A DNA stretch of 64,000 nucleotides from an uncultured Ignavibacteria bacterium (lineage in GTDB: Bacteria > Zixibacteria > MSB-5A5 > JAABVY01). The stretch is taken from assembly GCA_964627935.1 (NCBI GenBank), contig CAZVLB010000001.1, forward strand, positions 308,626 through 372,625. The letters run 5' to 3'. The first letter of the stretch is position 1, and each line of letters begins with the position of its first letter. The translations under genes and the position numbers were made by a program. Shown in pieces: positions 31,570-47,743 of the stretch. The notes under the pieces were generated by a model. It did not search any database and had not been told where the DNA came from. It saw only the letters and a list, made by a program, of their open reading frames with translations.

Positions 31570-33222
31570 ATGAAAATCAAATATTTTTCCGTACCGGTGA
31601 TAATTTGTATGCTTTTTATGGGTGAAACACTTCTCGCCCAGCAAAGCACTACCGGCCCGGTACCGCCCGAAGGTGTTGATCTGGGCTCGACATTGAAGTC
31701 AAGGTCGCAGGTGACGATTGAAGGGGTACCCCGTTATATCTGGCATCACGGCTGTGGGCCGACTGCGGCCGGCATGGTGATTGGCTATTGGGATGGACAT
31801 GGCTATGGTGACCTTGTTGATGGTGAGGCGATGGTCCAGCTCGGAAATGTCAAGACAATGATTGCAAGCGATAACGGCCTGGCGGTCTGCAATGATGTCT
31901 TCGCCGATCATTACCGCGATTATTCATGTCCGCGTGATGACACGGGGCCGCTTCTGGCCGATAAATCTGAGACAGGTGGAGCGCATGAAAATGAATGCCT
32001 GGCTGATTTTATGAAAACATCATGGAGCTCAATCGGCAATCGTTATGGCTGGAGCTATGACAGTGATTTGCAGATTTCACTGGATCAATATGTGCCGTAT
32101 GTAAATCCGGCCTATAGCGTGGAGACCGAGAATATTGCCTGCTGGGATGCTGAATTCAGTTGGCAAAGATACAAGGCCGAAATCGATTCCGGGCGGCCGG
32201 TGGTACTTCTGGTTGACACTGACAGCGACGGTTCTACCGATCATTTTGTGACAGCGATCGGCTATGATGACTCAAGCCTGGAATATGGAATATATAATAC
32301 ATGGGACACACAGCTTCACTGGCACAGCTGGGCCGATATTTCCCCGGGCCAGCCCTGGGGAGTTTACAGCATGACGACAATGAAGTGGACCGGTATATGT
32401 GTTGATTCAGATGGCGATAACTGGGGCGACCCCGGTCATCCGGAAAACATATGCGATACCGATAACTGCCCGGATGTCTACAATCCAGCCCAGGATGATA
32501 CAGATGGCGATGGGCTGGGTGATGCCTGTGATCCTGATATCGATGATGATGGATTCCTTAATGAAGATGACAACTGTCCCTATGCTCACAATATTGATCA
32601 GTCCGACACTGACGGCGACAACATAGGTGATGTCTGCGATAATTGCCCGATAGTTTCAAATCCGATGCAGTGGGATGAAGATTCCGATGGCGTCGGAGAT
32701 GCCTGCGACGGCCAGTTGCATATGCAATGCTATGATGTGCCCGATGGAATAATAGGGGAGCCGTATTCATATCAATTCCAGGCTGTGGGTGGTGTGACAC
32801 CCTATAACTGGGAAAAAGTCTGGGGGCAGTTCCCCTATGGTTTGAGTTTCGACAATCAAACAGGGATACTGCAGGGCATACCGACATGGGAGTCGGATTA
32901 TAGTTTCCGTATGCGTGTTACCGATTCCGATTCACCGATGAATGAAGATACCATGCTGATTACGATAGTCATCAGCCAACCACCGCAACCGGATTATATC
33001 TGCGGGGATGCAAATTCCGATGACGACGTCAATATCAGCGATGCCGTATTTGTCATAAATTATATTTTCGTTGCCGGTACTACTCCCGATCCGATTGACT
33101 CGGCGGATACGAATTGTGATGATGGTGTCAATATCAGTGATGCAGTCTGGATTATAAATTTCGTTTTTGCCGGCGGCAATGCGCCCTGTGATACGAATGA
33201 TGATGGTCAGCCCGACTGCTGA
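31570..33222 (+). CDS. Secreted papain-like cysteine peptidase (C39/C10-like) with TSP3 repeats, He_PIG-type Ig domain and C-terminal dockerin-like module
   Basis: Signal peptide; putative catalytic Cys in [17 protein letters not shown]; TSP3 repeats; putative Ig motif ([29 protein letters not shown]); dockerin-like C-terminus. Confidence 0.55.
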
Positions 33223-33235
33223 TGATGGATATCGA

Positions 33236-33280
33236 GATTCAAACAAAAAAAACCGGCCTGTTTGATTTCGGGCCGGTTTA
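33236..33280. terminator. Bidirectional terminator between convergent genes 31570-33222 and 33297-33935
   Basis: A-run, CCGGCC-tgtttgatttcg-GGCCGG hairpin, then TTTATTTTT. Confidence 0.7.
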
Positions 33281-33296
33281 TTTTTGCGGTTTTAGT

Positions 33297-33935
33297 TTAA
33301 TATTCGGGTTGCATGCTGAATGCCTGCGACATCAACGCGCCCATGAGCGAAATGCGCCACTTGCCGCCTTCTTTGATCAGGGTGATCTCCTGTGTCTGGC
33401 TTTCCATGGCAAAGGTCTTGTCCTTGATATGCCTTTTAAAGCTGGCAATCATTGCCGCAATCAACATTGTTTTGTCGTCATACGATAATTCCTCAAAACC
33501 ATTCCCCAGCTTGTCCAGGCGGTCACGTATTTCCGGGTCAATATTATCTTTGATAATATTTTCGGGGTCATCTTTTATAATGCTGACAGTAATTGGCACA
33601 TAGGCGGTATCCCCGCTGCCGTAGGGCTTGCCGATTTTATAGTTAAGCAGATTTTCAGGAATGGGTGTAATATCGCTGAGGAAATATTGAAGCAACTTAA
33701 TCTCTTCGGGCATATCCTCATTGAATTTGCCTGCCAGTAATTCGCTGACACCCGGAAACATTCCGAGCATGGCCCGGTCACCGGCTGAAAGCAGATTATA
33801 AGCGCCCAAAAGATCACCCTCTTTGGCAATGCTGTCCATGAATTTCTGTGCCGTCTCGGCTTTATCATCACCGGAACCGCAGGCGATAAAAAGAGCCAAG
33901 AGAGCTGCTGAAAAAACAGCGCAATACTTTTTCAC
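33297..33935 (-). CDS. Hypothetical lipoprotein
   Basis: Signal peptide with lipobox (LALFIACGSG), hydrophilic mature region, no enzymatic motif; shares a bidirectional terminator with the upstream plus-strand gene. Confidence 0.6.
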   Translation of the reverse strand: MKKYCAVFSAALLALFIACGSGDDKAETAQKFMDSIAKEGDLLGAYNLLSAGDRAMLGMFPGVSELLAGKFNEDMPEEIKLLQYFLSDITPIPENLLNYKIGKPYGSGDTAYVPITVSIIKDDPENIIKDNIDPEIRDRLDKLGNGFEELSYDDKTMLIAAMIASFKRHIKDKTFAMESQTQEITLIKEGGKWRISLMGALMSQAFSMQPEY

Positions 33936-34230
33936 GAAAACCTCCTCCTGTATAAAGCGGGAATGTCTTATAATCCTCTAACAAACAAAAATCTACTTAT
34001 TAATGGATTTTACTTTTATTGAATCGTCAGATTTTGCGCGAACATACAGCCGCAAAATTGTATGAATTTTGGTCATATTCGCTTTCGTTAGTCGTCTAAA
34101 AGCCTTGACTTTACGGACGGATTTAGCTATTTTGCAGTTTTTAATATGGACCTTCAGGTACTGGAACACGTTGTCCTGGACACGGTTATATAAACGGGAA
34201 ATTAAATTAATCACAGAATAGAGAGGTAAT

Positions 34231-35277
34231 ATGGTAGGAATTGTTGGATATGGTGCCAAGATACCCCGGCATCGTATTAAAGTGGAAGAAATTGCCAAAG
34301 TGTGGGGTGCTGATGCCGAGAGTTACAAGCGCGGGCTTCAGCTGACAGAGAAATCGGTCCCCGCACCGGATGTCGACTGTGTCACACTTTCAGTGGAGTC
34401 GACACGCTATGCATTGAAGCGGGCCGGGATTCAGGGCAGTCAGATTGGCGCTCTGTATATCGGCTCCGAATCCCATCCCTATGCGGTCAAGCCCTCCGGC
34501 ACGATCTGTGCCGAGGCGATCGGTGCCACACCGCATTGTCATAATGCGGATTATGAATTTGCCTGCAAGGCCGGTTCCGAGGCGATGTTTGTCGCCATGG
34601 GCCTGGTCAAATCTGGCTTTGTCGAATATGCGGCCGGAATCGGCGCAGATACATCGCAGGGAGCTCCCGGCGACGCCCTGGAATATTCCGCGGCGGCTGG
34701 CGCTGCATCATTTATCATGGGCAGCGACAACATCATTGCCGAGCTTTTATTCCAGCACTCGTGGATGAGTGATACCCCTGACTTCTGGCGCCGCGAGCAT
34801 GAACATTATCCCCAGCATGGCGGAAGGTTCACTGGCGAACCGGCCTATTTCACGACTATCACAGGTTGCGCCAAGGCTCTTCTGGAAAAATCCGGAATGA
34901 AGCCCGAGGATTTCGCCTTTGCGGTATTTCATCAGCCCAACGGCAAATTCCCGATGAGGATCGGCAAGATGCTGGGCTTCGAGCGCGAACAGCTGGAAAC
35001 CGGATGGCTCGTGCCGGTTCTCGGTAACACCTATTCCGGCGCATCTCCGATCGGCCTGACGGCTATCCTGGATATCGCCAAGCCGGGTGATAAGATTTTC
35101 ATGTGCTCGTATGGCTCCGGCGCGGGATCTGACGGTTTCATATTCCAGGTCACCGACCGAATCAAAGAGGTCCAGGACCTGGCTCCCAAGACCCGTCCCC
35201 AGCTGGATGAAAACAAAATCTATGTCGACTATGGCACGTATGCCAAGTTCCGCAAGAAAATTTTGAAAAACGCTTAG
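34231..35277 (+). CDS. Hydroxymethylglutaryl-CoA synthase, archaeal-type (short ~350 aa form)
   Basis: N-terminus MVGIVGYGAKIPRHRIKVEEIAKVWG is the hallmark of archaeal-type HMGCS; thiolase-fold condensing enzyme with active-site Cys; followed by thiolase and OB-fold partner genes. Confidence 0.8.
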   Translation: MVGIVGYGAKIPRHRIKVEEIAKVWGADAESYKRGLQLTEKSVPAPDVDCVTLSVESTRYALKRAGIQGSQIGALYIGSESHPYAVKPSGTICAEAIGATPHCHNADYEFACKAGSEAMFVAMGLVKSGFVEYAAGIGADTSQGAPGDALEYSAAAGAASFIMGSDNIIAELLFQHSWMSDTPDFWRREHEHYPQHGGRFTGEPAYFTTITGCAKALLEKSGMKPEDFAFAVFHQPNGKFPMRIGKMLGFEREQLETGWLVPVLGNTYSGASPIGLTAILDIAKPGDKIFMCSYGSGAGSDGFIFQVTDRIKEVQDLAPKTRPQLDENKIYVDYGTYAKFRKKILKNA

Positions 35278-35289
35278 GAGTTAATAGAA

Positions 35290-36450
35290 ATGAGAGATGT
35301 AGCTATTATAGGCGTTGGCATGACCAAGTGGGGAGAGATTTGGGAAAAGTCCCTCCGCCAGCTTTTTGTTGATGTCGCCATCGAGGCGATTGCCGATGCC
35401 GGTATAGAAGATCTGGATGGTATGTATATTGGCAGCATGTCTCCCGGTCTGTTTGTCGGTCAGGAACATATTGGTTCCCTGATGGCCGACTACATGGGCC
35501 GCAGACATCTTCCCGCCGCCAGAGTTGAATCAGCCTGTGCCTCGGGCGGACTGGCAGTTAAAACCGCTTTTCTGGATGTGGCCTCCGGGTATTCCAATAT
35601 CGTCCTGGCGGGCGGTGTTGAAAAGATGACCGATGTTTCCGGTGACGGCGCCACATATGCGCTGGCAACCGCCGCCGACCAGGAATACGAAGTGTTCCAT
35701 GGCGCGACATTCCCGGGCCTGTATGCCATGATGGCCCGCCGTCATATGCATGAATACGGCACAACACGTCGCCAGCTTTCATCAGTGGCAGTCAAGAATC
35801 ATGAGAACGGCTCCAAGAATCCCTATGCCCAGTATCCTTTCAAGGTCACTCATGAGGGCGTGGAGAATTCGACTATGGTCGCCGATCCGTTGACAATCCT
35901 GGATTGTTCGCCGATCACAGACGGCGCCGCGGCGGTGATTCTGGCCGATATGGAAACGGCCAAGAGAGTCTGCAAGGATAAGCCGCTGGTTAAGATCATC
36001 GGCGTGGGCCATGCCACAGATTCGATCGCATTGCATGACCGCAAATCACTTTCCGGCCTGTCCGGTACTCGTGTGGCGGGCGAAAGAGCCTACAAGATGG
36101 CCGGCAAGACACCTGAGGATATCAATGTTGCCGAGTTCCATGACTGCTTCACGATTGCCGAGATCATGGTTTTGGAAGAACTTGGTTTTTGCGAGAAGGG
36201 CAAAGGCGGAGAATACACCGAATCCTGCAACACGCATATTGGCGGCAAGATTCCGGTCAACACCTCCGGCGGCCTGAAATCCAAGGGTCACCCGGTCGGC
36301 GCCACAGGCGTTGCCCAGGTGCTCGAAATCACCAAACAGCTTCGCGGCGAATGCGGTGATCGCCAGGTGGAAGGCGCCAAAGTCGGCCTGACACAGAATA
36401 TGGGCGGTACCGGTGGTTCAACTGTTGTGCATATACTGGAGGTGGTCTAA
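35290..36450 (+). CDS. Acetyl-CoA C-acetyltransferase, archaeal-type thiolase (partner of HMGCS)
   Basis: [17 protein letters not shown]-terminus, thiolase-fold motifs ([11 protein letters not shown]; GHPVGATG); stop overlaps the next start (TAATG). Confidence 0.8.
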
Positions 36451-36845
36451 TGTTTCCGGCAAGAATATGGAGAGAAAGGCCGCAGAGATATCGTCTCGAG
36501 GCGGTCAAGAATAAAGCCACCGGCGAGGTCTATTTCCCGCCCCGCGTGGTAGACAGAGACGGCAAGAAGTTCGAAGCCGAAAATTATATCCTTCCCAGCG
36601 AAGGAAAGATTCATACCTATACAATCATCGAGGTTCCTCCCAGCCAGTTCAAAGATGAGGCTCCCTATGTTGTCGGTATAGTCGAGCTTTCCGATGGTAC
36701 TAAGCTGACCTGCCAGATCACCGATCTGGCCGACAAAAGCTGGCTTGGCATCGGCAAGAAAGTTCGCCTGGAATTCAGAAGAGTCCAGACCGACAGCCAT
36801 CATGGAGTATTGTCTTACGGCTATAAAGCCGTGCCGGCGGAGTAA
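36450..36845 (+). CDS. OB-fold (DUF35-like) acyl-CoA-associated protein, scaffold partner of thiolase/HMGCS
   Basis: 131-aa protein in the conserved third position of thiolase-HMGCS-DUF35 operons; OB-fold-like pattern; the Zn-ribbon cysteines appear to be absent. Confidence 0.6.
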
Positions 36846-36847
36846 CG

Positions 36848-38458
36848 ATGTATTCACGAATTGAATCGAAGATCGACACATCCTCGGCGGACTTCAAAAA
36901 AAATCGGGAGGAAAACCTAAAACTCAGAGATGGGTTTTTAGAGAAACTGGAAGTCATCAAAAAGGGCGGACCGGATTACATGGTCGAGCGCCACAAGAAA
37001 CGTGGCAAGATGACCGCGCGTGAACGTCTGGCCGCTCTCTTCGACAAGAATACGCCGTTTCTGGAATTATCGCCCCTGGCGGCATATGACATGTACGAAA
37101 ATGAAGCCCCCTCGGCCGGGATGATCACCGGTATCGGTGTTGTCCGCGGCCGTGAGGTGCTGGTTATCGCCAATGATGCCACAGTCAAGGGCGGAACATA
37201 TTTTCCCATGACAATCAAGAAGCACGTGCGTGCCCAGCAGGTTGCCATGGAAAATCACCTGCCCTGTGTCTACCTGGTGGATTCCGGAGGAATCTTCCTG
37301 CCCCATCAAAGCGGGACATTCCCGGACCAGGGACATTTCGGACGGATTTTCTACAATCAGTCTGTCATGTCGGCCATGAGCATTCCACAGATTTCGGTGG
37401 TCATGGGTTCATGCACCGCCGGTGGTGCCTATGTGCCCGCTTTGTGCGATGAGACTGTCATTGTCAAGAAGCAGGGTACGATCTTTATCGGCGGCCCGCC
37501 TCTGGTGAAAGCCGCAACCGGTGAATCGGTAACCGATGAGGAATTGGGTGGCGCGGATGTACACTGCCGTATTTCAGGCGTGGCCGATCATTATGCGCAA
37601 AACGACCAGCATGCGATTGAAATCACACGTTCGGTTGTGGAATCGCTGGATCATCCGGCCAAATTCAAACTCAATCGTATCGAACCTGAGGATCCTTATT
37701 ATGATCCTGAGGAACTCTATGGCGTAGTGCCTGCCAACCTGCGCAAGCCCTATGATATTCGCGAAGCTATAGCACGAATTGTTGACGGCTCGAGATTCCA
37801 GGAATTCAAAGAATTATACGGCCAGACACTGGTGACCGGCTTCGCGCGAATTATGGGCTATCCGGTTGGCATAATCGGCAATAATGGTGTGCTTTTCTCG
37901 GAGAGTTCTGTCAAGGGAGCACATTTTATCGAGCTCTGCACCGAACGCCAGATTCCGCTTATCTTCCTGCAGAATATCAGCGGATTTATTGTCGGCAAGC
38001 AGTATGAGCATGGCGGCATTGCCAAAGACGGCGCCAAGATGGTGCATGCTGTGGCCAATGCCAAAGTGCCCAAGTTCACCGTTGTAATCGGTGGTTCATA
38101 CGGCGCCGGTAACTATGCCATGTGCGGACGTGGCTATTTCCCGCGTCTGATGTGGATGTGGCCGAATGCCAAGATCTGTGTCATGGGTGGTGAACAGGCT
38201 GCCGATGTGCTCTGGACCGTCAAGAAACGTCAGCTCGAGAAAAAGGGCGTGAAAATCACCGGGGATATGGAGCGGGAATTCAAGAAGCCGACACTGGAAC
38301 GCTACGAATTCGAATCGACGCCATATTATTCCGGGGCGAGGCTCTGGGATGACGGCATGATCGATCCGGTCGAGACGCGCAGGATGCTGGCGCTGGGTAT
38401 TTCCATGTCGCTCAATGCCGATGTGCCCAAGACCAAGTACGGTGTATTCAGGATGTAG
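36848..38458 (+). CDS. Acyl-CoA carboxylase carboxyltransferase subunit (methylcrotonyl-CoA carboxylase beta-like)
   Basis: Carboxyltransferase motifs ([22 protein letters not shown]; [11 protein letters not shown]; [13 protein letters not shown]); 536 aa as in MCC beta. Confidence 0.8.
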
Positions 38459-38475
38459 CCGGGAAGGATTATCCG

Positions 38476-39261
38476 ATGGCTGACTATGAAACCATTAAAT
38501 ACAATAAGGACGGCAATGTTGCACGGATAACGTTCTGCCGTCCCAAAATCCATAACGCCTTCAATTCGACTATGATCCGTGAGCTTTATGATCTCTTCAG
38601 CAAGATGAGAGATGATAATGACATCCGGGTTGTGGTCATAACCGGCGAGGGCAAGTCCTATTGCGCCGGGGCCGATTTGAACTGGATGCGCGATGTGGTC
38701 AGGTATTCCTATGAACAGAATCTCAAGGAATCGCTGGAACTGGCCATGCTCTTCCGCACAATCTATGAATTCCCGCGCCCGGTGATCGGGCGAATCAATG
38801 GTGCCGCTATCGGTGGCGGGACGGGATTCGTGGCTGTAACGGATATTGCAATTGCGGCCGAATCGGCAGTGTTTTCATTTTCGGAGGTCAAGATCGGCGT
38901 GGTGCCGGCCTGTATTTCGCCCTATGTGGTCAAACGCGTGGGCGAGGGCCGTGCCCGTGAATTCTTCCTGACCGGCGAACGGCTGACCGCGCAACGCGCA
39001 TTGGATTCGGGCCTGGTCAATCGTATGGTGCCGGATGATAAGCTGGATGACGAGGTAGAGGCCATGGTCAAACAGCTGTTATCTTCCGGGCCGGATGCCC
39101 TGGCTATGTGCAAGGAACTTTTGGCAACCATAGCCGACCAGAATATCGGCGAATTCGAAAAATATACCGCCGAGGTGATCGCGACATTGCGCAAATCAGA
39201 TGAGGGACAGGAGGGTATGGACGCTTTTCTGAACAAACGCAAACCGAATTGGGTGGAGTAG
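38476..39261 (+). CDS. Enoyl-CoA hydratase (crotonase family; probable methylglutaconyl-CoA hydratase)
   Basis: Crotonase fold motifs (VVVITGEGKSYCAGADL; GRINGAAIGGG); position between MCC subunits. Confidence 0.75.
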   Translation: MADYETIKYNKDGNVARITFCRPKIHNAFNSTMIRELYDLFSKMRDDNDIRVVVITGEGKSYCAGADLNWMRDVVRYSYEQNLKESLELAMLFRTIYEFPRPVIGRINGAAIGGGTGFVAVTDIAIAAESAVFSFSEVKIGVVPACISPYVVKRVGEGRAREFFLTGERLTAQRALDSGLVNRMVPDDKLDDEVEAMVKQLLSSGPDALAMCKELLATIADQNIGEFEKYTAEVIATLRKSDEGQEGMDAFLNKRKPNWVE

Positions 39262-39271
39262 ATAATCAAAC

Positions 39272-40774
39272 ATGTTTAAAAAAATACTGGTCGCCAACCG
39301 CGGAGAAATCGCCTGCCGGATCATCCAGGCGGCCTCTGAAATGAATATTCCCACGCTGGCGGTTTATTCTGAAGCGGATGAGAAAGCTCTGCATGTGCTC
39401 AGGGCCGACGAAGCCGCGCTCCTGGGACCGCCGTCGCCGCTTGAAAGCTACCTGAATATTGATCGCTTGATTGAAGTCGCGAAGGAATTTGGCTCCGATG
39501 CGATTCATCCCGGCTACGGTTTCCTGGCCGAAAATCATAATTTTGCCAGGCAGTGCGAAGATGAAGGGATTACCTTTATCGGCTCGCATTCGGAATCGAT
39601 TCGCGCAATGGGCAACAAGGTCGAGGCGCGTCAGATGATGATCAACTCCGGTGTGCCCGTGATACCGGGCATGGAGGGTTCAGCCGAGGATGTCGAGCTG
39701 TTCAAGAAAGAGGCCGAACGGGTTGGCTATCCGGTGCTTCTGAAAGCCGCCGCAGGTGGCGGTGGTAAAGGCATGCGGGTTGTCCATGATCCGGATAATA
39801 TCGAGGATGCCCTGCATGGCGCCATGCGCGAGGCCAAATCGGCTTTTGGCGATGATTCGGTCTATCTCGAAAAATATATTCAGGAACCGCGTCATATCGA
39901 GTTCCAGGTATTCGGCGATAAGCACGGAAACTATATTCATCTGTTCGAACGCGAGTGTTCGATCCAGCGCCGTCACCAGAAAATAATCGAGGAAACACCC
40001 TCGGTGGCGGTTGATGATCTGTTGCGTACCAAGATGGGTGAGGCGGCTGTGCAGGTTGCCCGCGCATGTGAGTATACCAATGCCGGTACGGTCGAATTTT
40101 TGCTGGATAAGGACAAGAATTTTTATTTCCTGGAAATGAACACGCGCATACAGGTTGAACACCCGATCACTGAAATGGTAGTCGGTGTGGACCTGGTCAA
40201 GGAACAGATTCGTGTCGCGTCGGGCGAACCATTGTCTATCGGGCAGGGTGATGTCGAGCAGCGCGGGCATGCAATCGAATGCAGGGTATATGCCGAGGAT
40301 GCCGAGAATAAATTCCTGCCGTCATCGGGCAAACTGCTCTTCCATCGTGAACCGCGCGGGCCATTTATCCGCGTCGATACGGGCGTCTATTCCGGGGTTG
40401 ATGTAACCGTTTACTATGATCCGATTCTATCCAAGCTGGTTGTCTGGGGTGAAAACAGGGCCGATGCGATCGAGCGAATGAAGAAGGCCCTGGATAATTA
40501 TATCGTGTTGGGAGTCAAGACATCCATCCATTATCTTAAAGCGATACTTGAACACAGGGAATTCATCGAGGGCCGCACCTACACTGATTTCATCGATACC
40601 AATATGAAAGATTGGGTCCCGCCGGAATTATCTGATGATAACAAAAAGATAGTTCTCCTGGCGGCCGCAGTGAACGAGATGAACAGGAAGCCGGAATACG
40701 CCGAGGGCGGTCCGCAGGAGATGCCATCGCCATGGCAAACCATTGGCAAATGGGAAATTGGGATGGGAGGTTAA
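39272..40774 (+). CDS. Biotin carboxylase subunit of acyl-CoA carboxylase (no fused BCCP)
   Basis: MFKKILVANRGEIACRIIQAA N-terminus, ATP-grasp motifs (GYPVLLKAAAGGGGKGMRVV; EMNTRIQVEHPITE). Confidence 0.9.
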   Translation: MFKKILVANRGEIACRIIQAASEMNIPTLAVYSEADEKALHVLRADEAALLGPPSPLESYLNIDRLIEVAKEFGSDAIHPGYGFLAENHNFARQCEDEGITFIGSHSESIRAMGNKVEARQMMINSGVPVIPGMEGSAEDVELFKKEAERVGYPVLLKAAAGGGGKGMRVVHDPDNIEDALHGAMREAKSAFGDDSVYLEKYIQEPRHIEFQVFGDKHGNYIHLFERECSIQRRHQKIIEETPSVAVDDLLRTKMGEAAVQVARACEYTNAGTVEFLLDKDKNFYFLEMNTRIQVEHPITEMVVGVDLVKEQIRVASGEPLSIGQGDVEQRGHAIECRVYAEDAENKFLPSSGKLLFHREPRGPFIRVDTGVYSGVDVTVYYDPILSKLVVWGENRADAIERMKKALDNYIVLGVKTSIHYLKAILEHREFIEGRTYTDFIDTNMKDWVPPELSDDNKKIVLLAAAVNEMNRKPEYAEGGPQEMPSPWQTIGKWEIGMGG

Positions 40775-40775
40775 A

Positions 40776-41285
40776 GTGGATTATGAACTTGTTTTAGATG
40801 GTCAGGAATACTTCGTTTCGATTTCCAAAGGCAAGAACGGCTATACAGCCAAAATCGGCGATGAGGAATTTTCGTTCGAGCAAATAGATTTTGAAACCGC
40901 CTGCTTAAAGTTAAATGTTAACGGTGTGCCCAAAACCGTATATGTGGCAGGTGAAAATGAAAAGTGCTACGTTCATGTCGACGGGCTCGTGCATACGCTC
41001 GAAATCCCCTCGGAGGAATCATCGGCAGGCGCCGGATCATCGGATTTAATTGTCGATGGCAAACAACTGGTGGTCGCGCCTATGCCGGGCAAGATTGTCG
41101 ATATTCCGGTCAAGGTCGGGCAGGCGGTCAAGGAAAAAGATATTCTCTGCGTGGTCGAGGCGATGAAGATGGAAAACGAAATCCGCTGCATGGTCAAGGG
41201 TGTGGTCAAGGAAATCGGCTACAAGGCCGGTGACCTGGTCGGCACCGAGGAAACGATCCTGATAGTCGAGGCGGCCGAGGAATAG
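40776..41285 (+). CDS. Biotin carboxyl carrier protein (biotinyl domain)
   Basis: Biotin attachment motif CVVEAMKMENEI; start set at GTG 40776 with SD GGGAGG 6 nt upstream (the ORF track begins at 40743). Confidence 0.8.
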   Translation: MDYELVLDGQEYFVSISKGKNGYTAKIGDEEFSFEQIDFETACLKLNVNGVPKTVYVAGENEKCYVHVDGLVHTLEIPSEESSAGAGSSDLIVDGKQLVVAPMPGKIVDIPVKVGQAVKEKDILCVVEAMKMENEIRCMVKGVVKEIGYKAGDLVGTEETILIVEAAEE

Positions 41286-41319
41286 ACTTTTTCTGCATAT
41301 GTGGCCCTTCAAAATTTTC

Positions 41320-41353
41320 AACCCACCGTTCCATGATGGTGGGTTTTGTTTTG
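41320..41353 (+). terminator. Rho-independent terminator after the BCCP gene (end of the acyl-CoA carboxylase operon)
   Basis: CCCACC-gttccatgat-GGTGGG followed by TTTTGTTTTG. Confidence 0.7.
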
Positions 41354-41731
41354 TACGTTATTATGGACCGCGTCAGTTCACCGTTCCGATAAATCGGGAC
41401 TAAGGAACTGATGCAACACCGGTAGCATTTGCATCGATGAATAGGGATCGGGATAAAGATAACCAAAATGTTGTAATTGCAGGCGCTGGGTGGCCGGCTC
41501 AAACTTTGTTTGGGCCGGATAGAAACGCAAAATATGCCTATATCATCCAAACCTCGACTTGAATACCATACCTCTTTAGTATACATAATCTTATTGCCCG
41601 AAATGATTTGCCCGCAGGCGTGATATTTATTATATTTGAGAATTGTTTCACAAGATAGAGGCCTTCCATCCGGGAGGGAATACCTGTAAATAGTAGTATT
41701 TATCAATAAATCTGGACTCACGGAGGAATAG

Positions 41732-42922
41732 ATGGATTATCCTGAAGCTTATATTGTTGCCGGATGCCGTTCCGCTATCGGTATTCTGCACAGTCATCTT
41801 TCCGCATTTTCAGCGCCACAGCTGGGCGCATTTGCTATCAAAGAAGTGGTAAAAAGAGCCGGTATCGATCCCGCCACAGTTGACGAGGTCATTATGGGCC
41901 AGGTGGTGCAGGGCGGATCGGGCCAGGCCCCGGGCCGTCAGGCCGCAATCCATGGCGGAGTACCGCCCGAGGTCCCGGCTGTGACAATCAACAAGGTCTG
42001 CGGATCAGGGCTAAAGGCCGTTATGATGGCCGCCTCGCAAATCAAAGCCGGCGATGGCCATTGTTTCATCTGCGGCGGTATGGAAAGCATGTCCAATGCC
42101 CCCAATATCCTGCCCGCCAAGGCCAAGCGCGGATTTAAGTTCGGCAATCAGCAGTTGATTGATATTATGATCACAGATGGCCTGTGGGACTCATTCAATA
42201 ACTTCCACATGGGCAATGCCGCCGAATATACTGCCGAAAAAGCCGGTATCACGCGTGAGATGCAGGATGAGTTTGCGCATAATTCTCATCAGAAAGCGCT
42301 CAAGGCCTGGGATGAGGGCAAATTCGACGCTGAAGTTTTCCCGATCGAGATTCCCCAGCGCAAGGGTGATCCGGTTGTGTTCAACAAAGATGAAAATCCG
42401 CGTGTGACCACACCGGAAAAGCTGGGCTTTCTCAAGCCGGCCTTTGTCAAAGAAGGAACGGTAACGGCAGGTAACGCCCCGGGTCTGAATGATGGCTCAG
42501 CGGCAGTGATAGTATGTTCGAAGGAATATATCGACAAGCATAACCTGACACCAATTTGCAAAATCACGGCCTATGATTCGGCCAGCCTCGACCCCAAAGA
42601 ACTTTTCTTTACACCGATTTATGCCGTGCGCAAGGTCATGAAGAAACTGGGTACCGATGATGTCAATTTCTTCGATCTGATCGAAGCCAATGAGGCCTTC
42701 AGCGCACAGGCCTTAGCCGATGGCAAAGAACTCGGCTGGGACTGGGATCGTGTCAATGTCCATGGCGGCGCGGTGGCGCTGGGTCATCCGATCGGAGCAT
42801 CGGGCGCACGTGTGCTGGTGACTCTGATGAATGCGCTCAAGGATCGCGGCAAGAAGACCGGTATCGCCACGCTCTGCCTTGGCGGCGGATCTGCGGTGGC
42901 CCTTTCAATCGAGATGGTATAA
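41732..42922 (+). CDS. Acetyl-CoA C-acetyltransferase (thiolase II, bacterial type)
   Basis: Thiolase motifs (INKVCGSGLKAVMMAA active Cys; NVHGGAVALGHPIGASGAR; CLGGGSAVAL). Confidence 0.9.
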   Translation: MDYPEAYIVAGCRSAIGILHSHLSAFSAPQLGAFAIKEVVKRAGIDPATVDEVIMGQVVQGGSGQAPGRQAAIHGGVPPEVPAVTINKVCGSGLKAVMMAASQIKAGDGHCFICGGMESMSNAPNILPAKAKRGFKFGNQQLIDIMITDGLWDSFNNFHMGNAAEYTAEKAGITREMQDEFAHNSHQKALKAWDEGKFDAEVFPIEIPQRKGDPVVFNKDENPRVTTPEKLGFLKPAFVKEGTVTAGNAPGLNDGSAAVIVCSKEYIDKHNLTPICKITAYDSASLDPKELFFTPIYAVRKVMKKLGTDDVNFFDLIEANEAFSAQALADGKELGWDWDRVNVHGGAVALGHPIGASGARVLVTLMNALKDRGKKTGIATLCLGGGSAVALSIEMV

Positions 42923-42946
42923 GACAACTTACGGGAGGTTTTCGAG

Positions 42947-43801
42947 TTGGATATAACAAAAGTAGTAGTATTTGGCGCGGGCACGATGGGTAATGGCATC
43001 GTGCATGTTTTCTCACAGAACGGATATGACGTTACCATGATAGATACGAAACAGGATTTTCTGGATCGCGGCCTTTCCATGATCAAGAAAAACATGGAGC
43101 GCCAGATTAAAAAAGAGATCATAACCGAAGATCAGATGAATGAATCCCTGGGACGAATCAAAACCTCGGTTTCACCCGAGGATGCTAGGGATGCCGACCT
43201 GGTGGTCGAAGCGATATTTGAAGATCTCGAAACGAAACTTGATCTGTTCAAAAAGCTGGATGCGATCACTCGTGATGAAATCATCCTGGCCTCGAACACG
43301 TCATCGCTGCCGATAACAAAACTGGCCAGCGCCACCAATCGTCCGGACAAAGTGATCGGAATGCACTTCATGAATCCGGTTCCGATGATGAAGCTGATCG
43401 AATTGATCCGCGGTATGGCTACCTCGGATGAAACATTCAATTTCATTTTCGAGCTTTCCAGGAAGCTGGGCAAAACGCCGGTCGAAGTCAACGACTACCC
43501 CGGATTTATTGCCAACAGGATCCTGATGCCGATGATCAATGAAGCCGCCTTTGCGCTTTTTGAGGGTGTGGGAACGGCAGAGGCGATTGACACTGTTATG
43601 AAACTGGGCATGGCCCATCCAATGGGACCGTTGACACTGGCCGATTTTATCGGGCTGGATGTCTGCCTGGCGATTCTGGAGGTGCTTCATGAGGGATTGG
43701 GCGATCCCAAGTATCGTCCCTGTCCGCTTCTGAAGAAGATGGTTGAAGCCGGATACCTTGGCCGCAAGAGTGGCCGGGGATTCTATGATTACTCCAAATA
43801 G
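42947..43801 (+). CDS. 3-hydroxyacyl-CoA (3-hydroxybutyryl-CoA) dehydrogenase
   Basis: NAD-binding [13 protein letters not shown] Rossmann motif; [13 protein letters not shown] and C-terminal dimerisation domain; probable TTG start with SD GGGAGG. Confidence 0.88.
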
Positions 43802-43814
43802 ATGAGGAGTTTAT

Positions 43815-44957
43815 ATGAATTTCGAACTTTCTGAAGATCATATAATGATGCGCGATTTCGGTCGCGAATTCGCGGTCAAACGCCTTGCTCCGATTGCCGA
43901 GGAAATGGACGCCAAGGGTGAGATGCCCGATGAGATCATGAAAGAGGCCGCGGAACTGGGTTTCTTCGGACTACTGTGTCCTGAACAATATGGCGGCCAG
44001 GATGTCGACACCCTGAGCTATGCCCTGATTATCGAGGAACTTTCCAGGGCCTGCGCCGGATTTGCGATTACGGTTTCGGTTCATAACTCGCTGGTAATTC
44101 CGGCTATTTTAAATTTTGGAAATGATGAGCTCAAACAGGAATGGCTTCCCAGGTTGGCCTCTGGTGAAATAATCGGCGCCTATTCATTATCGGAGCCCGG
44201 TTCCGGTACCGATGCCGGTAGCCTGAGTTGCCAGGCTCTGCCGCAGGGTGACGATTTCATCTTCAACGGTACCAAGAGCTGGGTAACCTCGGCCAAGTTC
44301 GCCGGTGTTTTTGTGGTATTTACCCTGACCAATCCCGAAGCCGGCCCCAAGGGTATATCAGCCATTATTGTGCCCGCCGGCCTTGATGGGATGTCACTGG
44401 GCGCACCGGAAAAGAAGATGGGCCTGAAATGTTCCGATACCCGTGAGCTGTCATTTATGGATGCCAGGGTTCCGCAGAAAAACCTCCTGGGCGAACAGGA
44501 TCATGGATTCAAGATCGCGCTTTCGCTTCTGGATAACGGCAGAATCGGAGTCGGTGCCCAGGCGCTGGGAATCGCCGAAGCGGCCTATAAAGAAGCCCTG
44601 GAATATTCCAAAGAACGCAAGCAGTTCGGCAGACCGATTTCAGCATTCCAGGCAATTCAGTTTAAGCTGGCCGACATGGCCACACAGATCGATGCCGCCA
44701 GGCTGATGGTGTATCGTGCCGCGGTTCTGAAAGATTCCGAGGGCCGTCACAGCCGCGAAATTTCCATGGCCAAGTTGTATGCATCAGAGATGGCCAATTA
44801 TGTCGTCGATGAGGCGGTGCAGATTCATGGCGGTTACGGCTATGTCAAGGAATATCCGGTGGAACGGTATTTCCGCGATGCCCGTGTGACAGAGATTTAT
44901 GAGGGCACATCGGAGGCCCAGAGAGTTGTAATTTCACGCGATATCCTGAAGGATTGA
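43815..44957 (+). CDS. Acyl-CoA dehydrogenase (short/branched-chain)
   Basis: ACAD motifs (LSEPGSGTDAGSL; QIHGGYGY; YEGTSEAQRVVISRDIL). Confidence 0.88.
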   Translation: MNFELSEDHIMMRDFGREFAVKRLAPIAEEMDAKGEMPDEIMKEAAELGFFGLLCPEQYGGQDVDTLSYALIIEELSRACAGFAITVSVHNSLVIPAILNFGNDELKQEWLPRLASGEIIGAYSLSEPGSGTDAGSLSCQALPQGDDFIFNGTKSWVTSAKFAGVFVVFTLTNPEAGPKGISAIIVPAGLDGMSLGAPEKKMGLKCSDTRELSFMDARVPQKNLLGEQDHGFKIALSLLDNGRIGVGAQALGIAEAAYKEALEYSKERKQFGRPISAFQAIQFKLADMATQIDAARLMVYRAAVLKDSEGRHSREISMAKLYASEMANYVVDEAVQIHGGYGYVKEYPVERYFRDARVTEIYEGTSEAQRVVISRDILKD

Positions 44958-46105
44958 TTATGGATCTGGATATTAAATACACAGACTTCAAAGCGCAGGT
45001 GCGCTCCTATGCCGAGGAGAAGATCGCACCCCATGCGGCCAAAATCGACAGTGAGCAGTTCTACTCCAAAGACGTTCATGAGGCGATAAACGACAAGGGC
45101 TGGTGGGGATGTCTTGTACCCAGAGATTATGGCGGACTAGACCTGAAGACAATAGAATACGCCATCATAGTGGAAGAGGTTGCCCGAGTCTGCGGTTCGA
45201 CCGCATTGACACTGGCGGCGCATAATTCCCTGGGTACCTGGCCGATCTGGAAATTCGGCAATGAGGAGCAGCGCAAAAAGTATCTTCCGCCCGCGGCCGA
45301 AAAAGGCAGTTTGATTGCATTCGGCCTGACCGAGCCGGAGGCCGGTTCCGATGCCGGTGGTACCAAGAGCAAGGCTGTTAAACAGGATGGCGGCTATCTG
45401 CTTAACGGCACAAAATGCTGGATAACCTCGGCCACAGTTTGCGATACCGCCATTGCCACGGCTCGTACCAGCGATGAGGGCGGCGTAAAGGGCATTTCAT
45501 CGTTTATTCTCGAAAAAGGCATGGAGGGTTTCACATCCGGCAAAAAGGAGAATAAGCTGGGATGCCGCGGTTCGGATACGGCCTATATGCATTTCGATGA
45601 TGTCAAGCTTCCAAAAGAACAGCTTATGGGCGAAGAGGGAAAGGGATTCAAGCAATTCATGATGACCCTTGACGGGGGACGCATATCAATTGGTGCAATG
45701 GCGCTTGGATTGGCACAGGCCGCATTGGATGTCGCCCTAAAGTATGCTTCCGAGCATGAATTCGACGGCAGGCCCATGGCAAAGGGACAGGGTGTGCAGT
45801 TTCAACTGGCTGATATGGGTATGCAGATCGAGGCGGCCAGGTTGATGATATATAAAACCGCCTGGATGAAGGATAATGACATTCCCTATACCAAGTATTC
45901 GGCCATGTGCAAGCTGTACGCTTCGGAGGTTGCCAATTTCTGCACCGGTACCGCCATGAAGCTGATGGGCGCCGACGGTATCAGTGAGAAATATCCGGCA
46001 GAACGCTATTATCGTGATATGAAATTATGTGAAATCGGCGAGGGTACCTCGGAGATTCAGCGCGTGGTCATAGCCCGTGAGCTGCTTTCCGGTCTCACAA
46101 AGTAA
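44954..46105 (+). CDS. Acyl-CoA dehydrogenase, second paralog
   Basis: ACAD motifs (LTEPEAGSDAGG; YEGTSEIQRVVIAREL style C-terminus); overlaps the previous ACAD by 4 nt. Confidence 0.88.
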   Translation: MIMDLDIKYTDFKAQVRSYAEEKIAPHAAKIDSEQFYSKDVHEAINDKGWWGCLVPRDYGGLDLKTIEYAIIVEEVARVCGSTALTLAAHNSLGTWPIWKFGNEEQRKKYLPPAAEKGSLIAFGLTEPEAGSDAGGTKSKAVKQDGGYLLNGTKCWITSATVCDTAIATARTSDEGGVKGISSFILEKGMEGFTSGKKENKLGCRGSDTAYMHFDDVKLPKEQLMGEEGKGFKQFMMTLDGGRISIGAMALGLAQAALDVALKYASEHEFDGRPMAKGQGVQFQLADMGMQIEAARLMIYKTAWMKDNDIPYTKYSAMCKLYASEVANFCTGTAMKLMGADGISEKYPAERYYRDMKLCEIGEGTSEIQRVVIARELLSGLTK

Positions 46106-46130
46106 ATCTTTACAGATTAGTTAAAAATAT

Positions 46131-46163
46131 AAAGGTCAGGCCGAAAAGCCTGACCTTTTTTCG
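46131..46163 (+). terminator. Rho-independent terminator after the second acyl-CoA dehydrogenase gene
   Basis: AGGTCAGGC-cgaaaa-GCCTGACCT followed by TTTTTT. Confidence 0.85.
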
Positions 46164-46376
46164 CGGCATCGGGATATATTTACAATAACAGGGGGCTGGG
46201 AAAAGCGGATATTAATCCGAATTCCTTACAGTATTTATCGGAGTTTTAGGAATGCTATGCAGTTGAAATTCTGAACAGTTAATTGGCTCAAAGATGCTGT
46301 TTAGAGTTGAAATAGGCGAGCATTATCAATATATTGTTGCAAAGATTTTTGATTAATTGCTGAAGGGAGATAGCGA

Positions 46377-47309
46377 ATGAATAAAGTGGATAAAATCTGG
46401 ATGAATGGCAAGCTGGTGGATTGGGATGATGCCAAAATTCATGTGCTGTCCCATGGTCTGCATTATGCTTCTTCGGTTTTCGAGGGTGCCCGCTGCTATG
46501 AGACCAAGAAGGGATCGGCAATATTCCGTCTGCAGGAACATACCGACCGGCTGTTCGAGTCGGCCAAGATTTGCCGCATGGAAATACCCTTCACCAGGGA
46601 AGAAATCAATAATGCCATTATCGAACTGATCCAAATTAACAAGCTCAAAAACTGCTATATCCGCCCAATAGTATATCGCGGCTATGAATCTCTCGGGGTT
46701 TATCCGGGTGACTGCCCGATAGATGTTTCCATCGCTGTATGGGAATGGGGTAAGTACCTGGGTGCCGATGCGCTCGAGAATGGTGTCGATGTCTGCGTTT
46801 CATCGTGGAACCGTCCCGCACCCAATACGCTTCCGGCCATGGCCAAGACCGCCGCCAACTACCTGGGTGGCCAGTTGATCAAGATGGAGGCGATTTCGCA
46901 TGGCTATGTGGAGGGAATCGGCCTGGATGTGGAAGGCTTCGTTTCAGAGGGATCGGGCGAGAATATATTCCTGGTCAGAAACGGGGTTTTGATAACACCG
47001 CCCTTCTGTGCATCGATCCTGGCAGGCATAACACGCCGCACTGTAATTCACCTGGCCGAGGAAATGGGAATTACGGTAAAAGAGGAGAATATACCGCGTG
47101 AGGCTCTGTATGTTTCCGATGAGGTTTTCTTTACAGGCTCGGCGGCGGAGATTACACCGATTGCAACAATTGACCGGATTCCGATCGGTCAGGGAAGAGG
47201 GCCGATCACCAAGAAGCTTCAGGATGCTTTCTTTAATGTCGTTGTCGGTGGCAACGATCCCTATGGCTGGCTGACATTTGTTTATAAAGAAGCCGGAGTG
47301 ACTGCCTGA
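46377..47309 (+). CDS. ilvE: Branched-chain amino acid aminotransferase
   Basis: Fold-type IV PLP enzyme motifs ([35 protein letters not shown]; [14 protein letters not shown]). Confidence 0.88.
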
Positions 47310-47743
47310 TGAAGATAGCGCTGGGCGCGGATCATAAGGGCTATCCGCTCAAGGAAAAGATCAAGGCGTATTTGATTGAACGCGGCGATGAGGTTGTCGA
47401 TTTCGGCACCGATTCGGAAGAATCCGTGGATTTTCCGGATTTTGGCCTGAAAGTCGCTCATGCAGTGGCTGATAGTCAGGTAGATTATGGTATCAATATC
47501 TGCTGGACAGGCAATGGCATGAATATGGCCGCCAACAAGGTTGACGGTATCCGATCGGGTCTGTGCCTTTCCGAAGAGATGGCGGAACTGACCCGTTCCC
47601 ATAATGACGCCAACGTTTTATCGCTGGCCTCGAAATATGTTCCAGAGGATGCAGGCTTGAAAATCGTGGAAAAGTTCCTGAGCACCTCTTTCGAGGGCGG
47701 CCGTCATGTACAGCGCCTGGAAAAGGTCATGGCGGAAGAGTAG
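47309..47743 (+). CDS. rpiB: Ribose-5-phosphate isomerase B
   Basis: [19 protein letters not shown]-terminus and CWTGNGMNMAANK motif typical of RpiB/LacAB family; start overlaps ilvE stop (TGATG). Confidence 0.85.
   Translation: MKIALGADHKGYPLKEKIKAYLIERGDEVVDFGTDSEESVDFPDFGLKVAHAVADSQVDYGINICWTGNGMNMAANKVDGIRSGLCLSEEMAELTRSHNDANVLSLASKYVPEDAGLKIVEKFLSTSFEGGRHVQRLEKVMAEE

Follow-up and report, generated by a model that had tools for sequence, protein, structure and literature searches.

An archaeal-type HMG-CoA synthase/thiolase/DUF35 trio in a bacterial methylcrotonyl-CoA carboxylase operon with no HMG-CoA lyase gene: a possible variant of leucine catabolism

Seven genes on the + strand form one unit at positions 34231-41285 of the window, the 64-kb stretch of DNA analysed here, with spacing between genes that runs from a 1-base overlap up to 17 bp. 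The unit and its boundaries are as follows:

34105..34133, + strand: TTGACT-17-TATTTT, promoter-like by consensus match alone, ahead of the operon
34231..35277, + strand: archaeal-type HMG-CoA synthase (HMGCS), 348 aa, by NCBIfam profiles and PDB 6ESQ chain I
35290..36450, + strand: SCP2/archaeal-type acetoacetyl-CoA thiolase, 386 aa, by PRK06064 and PDB 6ESQ chain A
36450..36845, + strand: DUF35 OB-fold scaffold protein, 131 aa, by PF01796 and PDB 6ESQ chain E
36848..38458, + strand: 3-methylcrotonyl-CoA carboxylase beta subunit (MCC-beta, carboxyltransferase), 536 aa, by similarity to MCC-beta
38476..39261, + strand: LiuC-like crotonase, probable 3-methylglutaconyl-CoA hydratase, 261 aa, by sequence matches
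39272..40774, + strand: biotin carboxylase part of a split MCC-alpha, 500 aa, by similarity to Azospirillum MCC-alpha
40776..41285, + strand: BT-like domain and BCCP part of the split MCC-alpha, with the AMKM biotinyl-lysine motif
41320..41345, + strand: terminator-like hairpin of 11 pairs that closes the seven-gene unit

The TTGACT box is kept in a relative of 90% identity (L002). Within the trio that opens the operon, the synthase scores 526 bits against NCBIfam NF003274 (cutoff 244), 518 bits against TIGR00748 (cutoff 353) and 441 bits, at about 60% identity, against 6ESQ chain I, and the thiolase scores 545 bits against PRK06064 (cutoff 420) and 416 bits against chain A. The DUF35 protein matches PF01796 at 61 bits and chain E at 102 bits; N, T, D and G stand in place of its four zinc-ribbon cysteines, and the ribbon has thus been lost. 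The synthase retains its full catalytic tetrad (E82/C114/H238/N270, or E-C-H-N) and the thiolase its CxS, HDxF and GH motifs; wherever a relative has a residue at the columns in question, both sets are kept (62 synthases and 60 thiolases, respectively). This strict conservation of the tetrad argues for selection on synthase chemistry. Since mutation has shown the tetrad and the His of HDxF to be required to form HMG-CoA (PMC12960953), we rule out a degenerate complex of the PhlACB or Pseudomonas fluorescens type.

The carboxyltransferase scores 726 bits against human MCC-beta and 719 bits against that of P. aeruginosa, above the 480 bits for geranyl-CoA carboxylase and the roughly 250 bits for PCC, and it is 61% identical to Azospirillum MCC-beta from a canonical liu cluster. 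In cultured bacteria the crotonase is matched best, at 45% identity, by ECH genes flanked by MCC-beta and MCC-alpha; it scores under the NCBIfam equivalog cutoffs and is detectably homologous to Myxococcus xanthus LiuC (PDB 5JBW, 109 bits). The biotin carboxylase is 52% identical to residues 1-497 of Azospirillum MCC-alpha, and the BT-BCCP protein, whose ORF spans 40743-41285 and whose likely start is a GTG at 40776 preceded by a GGGAGG Shine-Dalgarno sequence, aligns with residues 523-666; the split is kept in relatives. The profile, PDB and MCC-beta matches bear out the identities that an earlier note had assigned to all seven genes, including that of an MCC-like carboxyltransferase.

Two further units follow downstream:

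41608-41636: promoter-like site of the second unit, upstream of thiolase II
41732..42922, + strand: classical thiolase II (acetyl-CoA acetyltransferase), first gene of the second unit
42947..43801, + strand: 3-hydroxybutyryl-CoA dehydrogenase (Hbd), PRK05808 450 bits (cutoff 408)
43815..44957, + strand: short-chain acyl-CoA dehydrogenase (ACAD) 1, candidate isovaleryl-CoA or butyryl-CoA dehydrogenase
44954..46105, + strand: acyl-CoA dehydrogenase 2
46131-46158: hairpin after ACAD 2
46307-46335: promoter-like site of the third unit
46377..47309, + strand: branched-chain amino acid aminotransferase IlvE, NF005146 447 bits (cutoff 279)
47309-47743: RpiB, in the third unit with IlvE
47768-47789: terminator-like hairpin of the third unit

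The Azospirillum liu cluster has accessory genes to which thiolase II and one ACAD are 44-45% identical. ACAD 1 is 38-39% identical to bona fide isovaleryl-CoA dehydrogenase (IVD), but its catalytic Glu is of the MCAD type, and the IVD-type catalytic glutamate is absent from both ACADs. Histidine ammonia-lyase and secreted, dockerin-tagged peptidases are also encoded near the operon. With thiolase II, Hbd, two ACADs, IlvE and these peptidases nearby, the surroundings point to a catabolic role.

The earlier note had remarked that no HMG-CoA lyase accompanies these genes, and domain and homology searches of the 64-kb window agree. None of the approximately 50 large ORFs spanning the whole window contains an HMGL-like (PF00682) or HpcH/CitE-like domain. 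With two bona fide HMG-CoA lyases, both taken from canonical liu clusters, as queries, and with the window and about 80 related loci (the latter taking in 1.2 Mb) as the target, tblastn returned no match at E<0.04 and hmmsearch none at E<=10. Canonical liu clusters, such as those of Azospirillum (L083) and Cupriavidus (L082), have the lyase after genes in the order MCC-beta, ECH, biotin carboxylase.

The linkage of trio, MCC and hydratase is not a product of chance, because MCC-beta (counted at >=60% identity) adjoins the trio in 33 of the 54 informative relatives, that is, loci with enough flanking DNA, and lies directly downstream of it in 29. The linked loci come from metagenome-assembled genomes labelled Zixibacteria, Aminicenantes, Acidobacteriota, Planctomycetota, Eisenbacteria and Coatesbacteria, are spread across the entire HMGCS tree, and in several cases are rearranged yet still linked (L040, L055, L048, L049, L036 and L060). 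In the other 21 of 54, MCC-beta at that identity is missing and the trio mostly sits amid unrelated genes; four of these loci join it to a divergent second carboxyltransferase of glutaconyl type together with ECH, biotin carboxylase and BCCP. Among the matches listed, a relative is encoded in at least 591 of 600 stretches. Our literature search found no paper that describes the trio-MCC linkage. The arrangement is widespread and recurs in many uncultured bacterial phyla, rather than being an oddity of a single genome, a point that the earlier note had missed.

An ordinary leucine operon might account for these genes if the lyase were encoded elsewhere and the trio, co-transcribed as acting on lyase products, had a separate role such as acetoacetyl-CoA thiolysis or the handling of ketone bodies or acetoacetate. 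The HMGS/ACAT/DUF35 complex of P. fluorescens does carry out acetoacetyl-CoA thiolysis only (PMC12960953), and the 21 loci lacking MCC-beta are in keeping with a trio that works alone. We consider both the displaced lyase and the separate role unlikely: the tetrad lost from the P. fluorescens synthase is strictly conserved in the 62 relatives here, a classical thiolase II is already next door, canonical clusters keep the lyase adjacent where 0 of 80 related loci do, and the linkage outlasts rearrangements across phyla.

(S)-HMG-CoA is a compound handled both by crotonase-type hydratases and by HMG-CoA synthase. It is the sole metabolite common to the two halves of the operon, which, together with the cross-phylum synteny, strongly suggests that HMG-CoA joins them functionally. 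We suggest, tentatively and at a little under an even chance, that this is a liu-type operon for leucine/isovalerate catabolism in which the trio complex stands in for the lyase, breaking HMG-CoA down to acetyl-CoA; its flux direction, complex formation and energetic rationale are what we infer. Leucine would be transaminated by the neighbouring IlvE, the keto acid oxidatively decarboxylated by an enzyme encoded elsewhere, and one or other of the adjacent ACADs would dehydrogenate isovaleryl-CoA. The split MCC would carboxylate 3-methylcrotonyl-CoA at the cost of one ATP, and the LiuC-like crotonase would add water to 3-methylglutaconyl-CoA, giving (S)-HMG-CoA. The synthase, in reverse, would convert HMG-CoA and CoA to acetyl-CoA and acetoacetyl-CoA, and the latter would be handed via a shared CoA site to the thiolase and split into two acetyl-CoA, the exergonic thiolysis pulling the endergonic reverse synthase step. 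The operon probably links leucine/isovalerate and acetyl-CoA wholly via CoA esters. The products of the lyase route are acetyl-CoA and free acetoacetate; if our suggestion is right, one more thioester would be kept, worth approximately one ATP per leucine, and would offset the ATP used by MCC.

By our own estimate from standard free energies, cleavage of HMG-CoA to three acetyl-CoA lies at about +10 to +24 kJ/mol, less uphill than the citrate synthase reversal of the reversed oxidative TCA cycle, and the sequence from methylcrotonyl-CoA onward would be exergonic at physiological ATP potential. The estimate demands a low acetyl-CoA/CoA ratio, which counts against lyase replacement, as does the view of HMG-CoA synthase as an all but irreversible enzyme. 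The missing IVD-type glutamate and the loss of the zinc ribbon also weigh against it, and unlinked trios amid unrelated genes fit a housekeeping biosynthetic role. A canonical or CitE-like lyase could be encoded elsewhere in the genome; M. tuberculosis has one of the CitE-like kind, as PMC6689899 indicates, and in D. multivorans, an anaerobe that breaks down isovalerate, the lyase is of the ordinary kind (PMC5109826). T. brucei provides evidence directly against easy reversal, for there in vivo flux through an SCP2-thiolase/HMGS bridge runs only toward HMG-CoA (PMC5993337). The complex running in reverse, one of two uses that the earlier note had offered, is the reading best supported by context, though unproven.

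A third option, absent from that note as were the adjacent catabolic-looking units, is that the trio (from acetyl-CoA) and MCC/hydratase (from leucine/isovalerate) both make HMG-CoA in their textbook directions. The rest of a bacterial leucine-to-isoprenoid shunt, namely an HMG-CoA reductase and the mevalonate pathway, would then be encoded elsewhere. The missing lyase would be explained with no unusual reversal, the catalytic residues are intact in a synthase about 60% identical to a synthetic-direction enzyme, and unlinked trio copies lie amid housekeeping genes. However, the window holds no HMG-CoA reductase or mevalonate-kinase-type domain, no such family recurs as a neighbour among the clusters scanned from 80 loci, and the adjacent unit of thiolase II, Hbd and ACADs is left unexplained. 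Mevalonate use is not known to us from the phyla in which the linked operon occurs. A convergence of SCP2-type thiolase/HMGS and leucine routes at HMG-CoA has been demonstrated in T. brucei (PMC5993337), and a like one proposed for Calditenuis archaea (PMC12979851); PMC6107057 makes no mention of Zixibacteria, Aminicenantes, Acidobacteria or Planctomycetes, which is weak and dated negative evidence. We judge mevalonate supply, shunt included, somewhat unlikely.

A variant of the myxobacterial route, in which acetyl-CoA is built through 3-methylcrotonyl-CoA and isovaleryl-CoA into leucine or primers for iso-branched fatty acids, strikes us as quite improbable, both as a whole and in its steps: the trio would make HMG-CoA, the crotonase dehydrate it, MCC act in reverse as an ATP-conserving decarboxylase, and ACAD/ETF reduce the enoyl-CoA. 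This reading has the trio working exergonically, in its usual direction; two ACADs and IlvE adjoin the operon, and HMGCS with a LiuC-like dehydratase is also part of the M. xanthus route. We estimate that conversion of three acetyl-CoA to methylcrotonyl-CoA, CO2 and ATP is close to equilibrium and that reduction of the enoyl-CoA, being strongly exergonic, could pull the sequence. Nevertheless, the myxobacterial-type route, the other use proposed earlier, finds weak support: the window has no AibA/AibB-like decarboxylase (CoA-transferase fold) and no AibC-like reductase, the carboxylase is instead complete and ATP-dependent, with full ATP-grasp and BCCP and 52-61% identity to its catabolic MCC orthologues, and the neighbourhood is proteolytic and catabolic. 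No case is known to us in which a pathway of this kind physiologically runs a biotin carboxylase backwards to form ATP.

Canonical liu clusters (Pseudomonas liuABCDE; Azospirillum brasilense p2, Cupriavidus pauculus plasmid) share the order MCC-beta/hydratase/MCC-alpha, at 61%, 45% and 52% identity, with thiolase and ACAD genes alongside; the operon described here differs in having no lyase, a split MCC-alpha (biotin carboxylase and BT-BCCP), no IVD-type catalytic glutamate and an archaeal-type trio added 5'. The alternative isovaleryl-CoA pathway of M. xanthus consists of MvaS, LiuC, AibA/AibB and AibC. It likewise pairs an HMG-CoA synthase with a LiuC-type (de)hydratase for HMG-CoA/3-methylglutaconyl-CoA, but here the synthase is archaeal in type, with thiolase and DUF35, rather than MvaS, an ATP-dependent biotin carboxylase replaces the AibA/B decarboxylase, and the window lacks an AibC-like reductase. 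In the trypanosomatid/archaeal leucine-to-mevalonate shunt (PMC5993337, PMC12979851), SCP2-type thiolase/HMGS and MCC/hydratase also converge on HMG-CoA; there HMG-CoA reductase consumes the product, whereas none was found in this window. PhlACB, MucABC and the P. fluorescens ACAT/HMGS-DUF35 complex (PMC12960953) show the same tripartite architecture in bacteria, and PhlA, PhlC and PhlB are detectable homologues of the trio (208, 111-119 and 44 bits, respectively). These complexes act as Friedel-Crafts acetyltransferases or thiolases only, having lost the E-C-H-N tetrad and, in some, HDxF, all of which the present trio keeps. The archaeal complex (PDB 6ESQ; 2018) has the same three adjacent genes and conserved catalytic residues; here a bacterium carries the genes, which are transcribed together with MCC and hydratase and have no tie to mevalonate genes, the DUF35 zinc-ribbon cysteines have been lost in the lineage, and the physiological direction is possibly reversed. 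The coupling of synthase and thiolase in that complex is what the proposed reverse reaction would mirror.

The seven closely packed + strand genes that fill positions 34231-41285 are predicted to form a lyase-free, CoA-bound link between three acetyl-CoA and 3-methylcrotonyl-CoA. A promoter-like site precedes the first gene and strong hairpins flank the interval; we therefore regard it as one transcription unit, and two further units, each with signals of its own, lie downstream.

33250-33279, strong terminator-like hairpin after the upstream gene
34105-34133, promoter-like TTGACT-17-TATTTT upstream of the operon
34231-35277, + strand, archaeal-type HMG-CoA synthase (HMGCS)
35290-36450, + strand, SCP2-type thiolase
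36450-36845, + strand, DUF35 protein
36848-38458, + strand, carboxyltransferase resembling the beta subunit of methylcrotonyl-CoA carboxylase (MCC-beta)
38476-39261, + strand, crotonase (ECH)
39272-40774, + strand, biotin carboxylase
40776-41285, + strand, biotin carrier protein (BCCP)
41320-41345, strong terminator-like hairpin, 36 bases past the carrier stop
41732-46105, thiolase II, 3-hydroxybutyryl-CoA dehydrogenase and two acyl-CoA dehydrogenases (ACADs), with their own promoter-like site and hairpin
46377-47743, branched-chain aminotransferase IlvE and RpiB, with their own promoter-like site and hairpin

An Rfam scan of 33000-48500 returned no family and a single sub-threshold match. The IlvE gene ends on base 47309, which is also the first base of RpiB, and the two seemingly make up a small unit of their own, an unexplained pairing.

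The earlier note had read the first three genes (34231-36845) as an archaeal-type three-component module, and NCBIfam equivalogs, structural matches and intact motifs all bear this out. The 348-aa HMGCS lies above both of its NCBIfam equivalog cutoffs (526 vs 244 and 518 vs 353 bits) and scores 441 bits against chain I of PDB 6ESQ; the 386-aa thiolase, of the SCP2/archaeal type, reaches 545 bits with PRK06064 (cutoff 420) and 416 bits with 6ESQ chain A; and the 131-aa DUF35 OB-fold protein contains PF01796 and scores 102 bits against 6ESQ chain E. We take 6ESQ to be the crystallised thiolase/HMG-CoA synthase/DUF35 complex of Methanothermococcus thermolithotrophicus, reportedly the complex that Voegeli described in 2018, and the window trio matches it subunit by subunit. 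From the roughly 60% identity to that crystallised complex we infer that the three proteins would associate physically and channel acetoacetyl-CoA through a shared CoA-binding site. The complex also looks catalytically competent. The E82-C114-H238-N270 tetrad of HMGCS, whose residues were defined from a published analysis (PMC12960953), is invariant across the window protein and 62 of 62 relatives, and the window thiolase has the CxS nucleophile, HDxF (H284) and GH motifs, as do all relatives with a residue at those columns (58 to 60 of 60). The DUF35 protein of M. thermolithotrophicus has a CxxC...CxxC zinc ribbon, whereas the window protein (36450-36845) has N, T, D and G in place of the four cysteines and retains the OB fold; the cysteines persist in about 37 of 45 relatives and have been lost also in a few close ones. 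Specialised bacterial derivatives of such complexes, namely PhlACB, MucABC and one complex of P. fluorescens, have lost part of the catalytic residues (PMC12960953). Retention of the HMGCS tetrad and HDxF rules out a Friedel-Crafts acetyltransferase of the PhlACB/MucABC type, and profile scans of the window ORFs found no PKS/NRPS genes near the trio.

In the second half of the operon, the carboxyltransferase scores 726 bits against human and 719 bits against P. aeruginosa MCC-beta, compared with 480 bits for geranyl-CoA carboxylase and about 250 for propionyl-CoA carboxylases, PDB scores that rule out an acetyl-, propionyl- or geranyl-CoA carboxylase. The original description of an MCC-like enzyme, supported by these 719-726 bits and by 61% identity to Azospirillum MCC-beta, therefore holds. 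MCC-alpha (39272-41285) is encoded in two pieces, a biotin carboxylase of 500 aa and a polypeptide of roughly 170 aa with a BT-like domain and BCCP, which align to either end of the single-chain Azospirillum MCC-alpha. We rule out a frameshift as the origin of the split because it is conserved in relatives, with median lengths of 501 and 178 aa. The AMKM biotinylation motif is present in the carrier, whose start codon is probably GTG 40776, preceded by GGGAGG. For the crotonase, taken at first as a probable methylglutaconyl-CoA hydratase, the family and the affinity to the ECH of liu clusters stand: its top matches among cultured bacteria are ECH genes that lie between MCC-beta and MCC-alpha. 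Its scores fall short of the NCBIfam equivalog cutoffs (274 vs 350 and 246 vs 426), and we treat it as a candidate hydratase. The top PDB match of the carboxyltransferase (36848-38458) is 9tps, whose 743 bits exceed the scores of the MCC-beta chains from human and Pseudomonas; the entry carries the name 'propionyl CoA carboxylase beta subunit' and may in fact be an enzyme of the MCC type.

The two halves of the operon travel together well beyond this genome. A survey with one genome per species gave at least 600 matched stretches, and at least 591 stretches encode HMGCS relatives among the 600 matches listed. The best 80 of these at least 591 relatives share 66-90% identity with the window protein, and all come from bacterial metagenome-assembled genomes, with partly inconsistent record labels that include Zixibacteria, Ignavibacteria, Aminicenantes, Acidobacteriota, Planctomycetota, Eisenbacteria, Calditrichota, Coatesbacteria and others; the exact HMGCS sequence is on record in a short metagenome contig only. 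The trio is colinear in nearly all of the best 80, and in the closest relative among the matches listed (locus L002, 90%) the gene order is unchanged as far as the first ACAD. MCC-beta (at least 60% identity) accompanies the trio in 33 of the 54 loci among the best 80 that extend at least 2.5 kb beyond it, and lies directly downstream in 29. At loci L040, L055, L048, L049, L036 and L060 the linkage is rearranged, with the MCC genes upstream, divergent or behind inserted genes, and MCC-linked loci are scattered over the entire neighbour-joining tree of HMGCS. At L052, L059 (12712-17171), L063 and L078 the trio is followed by ECH, biotin carboxylase, a divergent carboxyltransferase and BCCP; this carboxyltransferase has 33-35% identity to MCC-beta and PDB scores about equal for MCC-beta and for the glutaconyl-CoA decarboxylase GcdA. 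Linkage that is kept through rearrangement and component replacement is good evidence for functional coupling of the two halves, and HMG-CoA is the one metabolite common to both. Counter-evidence to the reading proposed below lies in the 21 of 54 informative loci, again among the best 80, that have no MCC-beta at 60% identity or above, most with the trio amid unrelated genes and four with the divergent carboxyltransferase.

Other genes recur around the trio as well. An AtuA-family protein (PF07287 plus an AtuA ferredoxin-like domain) is encoded in L021 (9692-11518), L024, L026, L036 (16718-18556) and L060 (9966-11801), immediately 3' of the trio at three of these loci; at the other two, both from Zixibacteria, it immediately precedes MCC-beta at distances of 2 and 15 bp. 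These proteins have no PDB or NCBIfam match, and we know of no established function for AtuA in the Pseudomonas acyclic-terpene pathway; that it turns up beside the trio half as well as beside the MCC half is a lead. About 5.4 kb upstream of HMGCS in L034, L037, L050, L051, L053 and L057, loci labelled Aminicenantes, Eubacteriales or unclassified, we find a recurring lipoate-protein ligase (LplA/B catalytic domain), a zf-HC2 anti-sigma-like protein and a LiaF-like membrane protein.

That the operon and the window have no HMG-CoA lyase, a point first made by inspection, was confirmed by each of the searches we made. Pfam scans of about 50 large ORFs spanning the 64-kb window found no HMGL-like (PF00682) or HpcH/CitE-like domain. 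Two bona fide lyases, encoded in canonical liu clusters of a Cupriavidus and an Azospirillum plasmid, served as tblastn queries and as the basis of a small HMM; neither search brought up a homologue in the 1.21 Mb made up by the window and 81 loci. A marginal match in L021 (E=0.045) is a glycosyltransferase. A lyase may be encoded elsewhere in the genome: the sulfate reducer Desulfococcus multivorans uses an ordinary lyase in anaerobic isovalerate degradation (PMC5109826), and M. tuberculosis is reported to use a CitE-like enzyme (PMC6689899). Alongside reversal of the complex, the earlier note had offered a myxobacterial-type biosynthetic route, in which the operon would lead from HMG-CoA to isovaleryl-CoA. 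This finds no support in the window. Pfam scans of the window ORFs detected neither the CoA-transferase domains of AibA/AibB-like decarboxylases nor the MDR-reductase domain of AibC, and the route would need MCC to run backwards, forming ATP.

The direction of flux is not given by the sequence. We think that the context favours catabolism because the window contains liu-like accessory genes, IlvE, histidine ammonia-lyase and secreted dockerin-tagged peptidases. The two tandem ACADs (43815-46105), whose genes overlap by 4 bases, are 35-39% identical to bona fide isovaleryl-CoA dehydrogenases (IVDs); both have the MCAD/SCAD-type catalytic Glu (YEGT, GEGT) and a Gly where IVD has Glu254, and no EtfAB genes lie near them. 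To judge by these residues neither is a classical IVD, and if either is an IVD it would be a non-canonical one. Five secreted proteins with a C-terminal type I dockerin are encoded at 27027-29531, 29729-31210 and 31570-33222 and, on the - strand, at 51714-53969 and 54022-56607; they include a gingipain-like C25 peptidase, two M1 aminopeptidases and a protein in which a C39-like peptidase domain is combined with thrombospondin type 3 repeats, a set that suggests cellulosome-like protease display in the source bacterium. Two-component and chemotaxis-like genes are also abundant in the window, among them a response-regulator receiver domain fused to a PglZ domain (1946-3514) with an adjoining histidine kinase, and CheR (62456-63469); a HEAT-repeat protein is encoded at 59429-61483.

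We propose, tentatively and as something possible rather than probable, that in many uncultured bacteria the trio runs in reverse as a thioester-conserving substitute for HMG-CoA lyase. The reversed complex would convert HMG-CoA and two CoA to three acetyl-CoA, the endergonic reverse synthase step being pulled by channelled thiolysis; channelling between two active sites should serve the reverse direction as well as the forward one. The lyase route gives up a thioester by releasing acetoacetate in free form; the reversed complex would conserve it, and through it the ATP spent by MCC would be recovered. From standard formation energies we estimate that the conversion of HMG-CoA and two CoA to three acetyl-CoA costs about +10 to +24 kJ/mol, a less unfavourable value than that of citrate synthase reversal in the reversed oxidative TCA cycle, and that the whole sequence from methylcrotonyl-CoA would be exergonic at physiological ATP potential; no measured free energy for HMGCS turned up in the literature searched. 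Counter-evidence to easy reversal comes from T. brucei, in which the homologous SCP2-thiolase/HMGS bridge runs strictly in the one direction that forms HMG-CoA, and sterols are the sole destination of the HMG-CoA that derives from leucine (PMC5993337). The same organism offers a precedent for the main rival to reversal, a convergent supply of HMG-CoA for the mevalonate pathway, which has been proposed also for Calditenuis archaea (PMC12979851). Such a supply requires HMG-CoA reductase; however, neither its domain nor GHMP-kinase domains occur in the window ORFs, and no HMG-CoA reductase or mevalonate kinases appeared among the recurring neighbour clusters scanned. A 2018 survey of bacterial mevalonate pathways, which does not mention the phyla concerned (PMC6107057), argues weakly in the same sense. 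The MEP-pathway proteins IspH, Dxr, IspG and Dxs of E. coli found no match in 1.2 Mb of loci, an uninformative result given that no more than about one or two would be expected.

In the literature searched we found no paper on a thiolase/HMGCS/DUF35 module linked to MCC and no proposal of HMGCS reversal in leucine catabolism. A 2026 study catalogued 1,030 bacterial HMGS/ACAT/DUF35 clusters, left 1,001 of them uncharacterised and did not note an association with MCC (PMC12960953); whichever the direction of flux, the linkage described here gives part of these roughly 1,000 clusters a testable function. Should the complex replace the lyase, about one more ATP would be gained per leucine or isovalerate oxidised, a gain that would fall to energy-limited sediment and digester bacteria of the Zixibacteria, Aminicenantes, Acidobacteriota and Planctomycetota. 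The textbook "irreversible" HMGCS would then join citrate synthase as reversible in vivo, and automated calls of incomplete leucine degradation that rest on a missing lyase would need correcting. If the flux runs instead to HMG-CoA or isovaleryl-CoA, these phyla would possess either a mevalonate supply that has gone unrecognised or another, new origin for iso-branched lipid primers.

A canonical arrangement for comparison is the liu cluster of Azospirillum, with the order IVD, thiolase, ACAD, MCC-beta, ECH, MCC-alpha and HMG-CoA lyase. The MCC-beta, ECH and alpha parts of the window follow in the same order, with 61%, 45% and 52% identity, and the Azospirillum MCC-beta to which the window protein is 61% identical adjoins IVD and HMGL; the window thiolase II and the first ACAD are 44-45% identical to the Azospirillum accessory genes. 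Unlike Azospirillum, the window has no lyase that we could find, and its MCC-alpha is split in two. It is, in other words, a liu-type operon in which the archaeal-type complex would take the place of the lyase, or at least occurs with no lyase beside it. A trio running in reverse within it would be to leucine/isovalerate catabolism what the backward-running citrate synthase is to the reversed oxidative TCA cycle.
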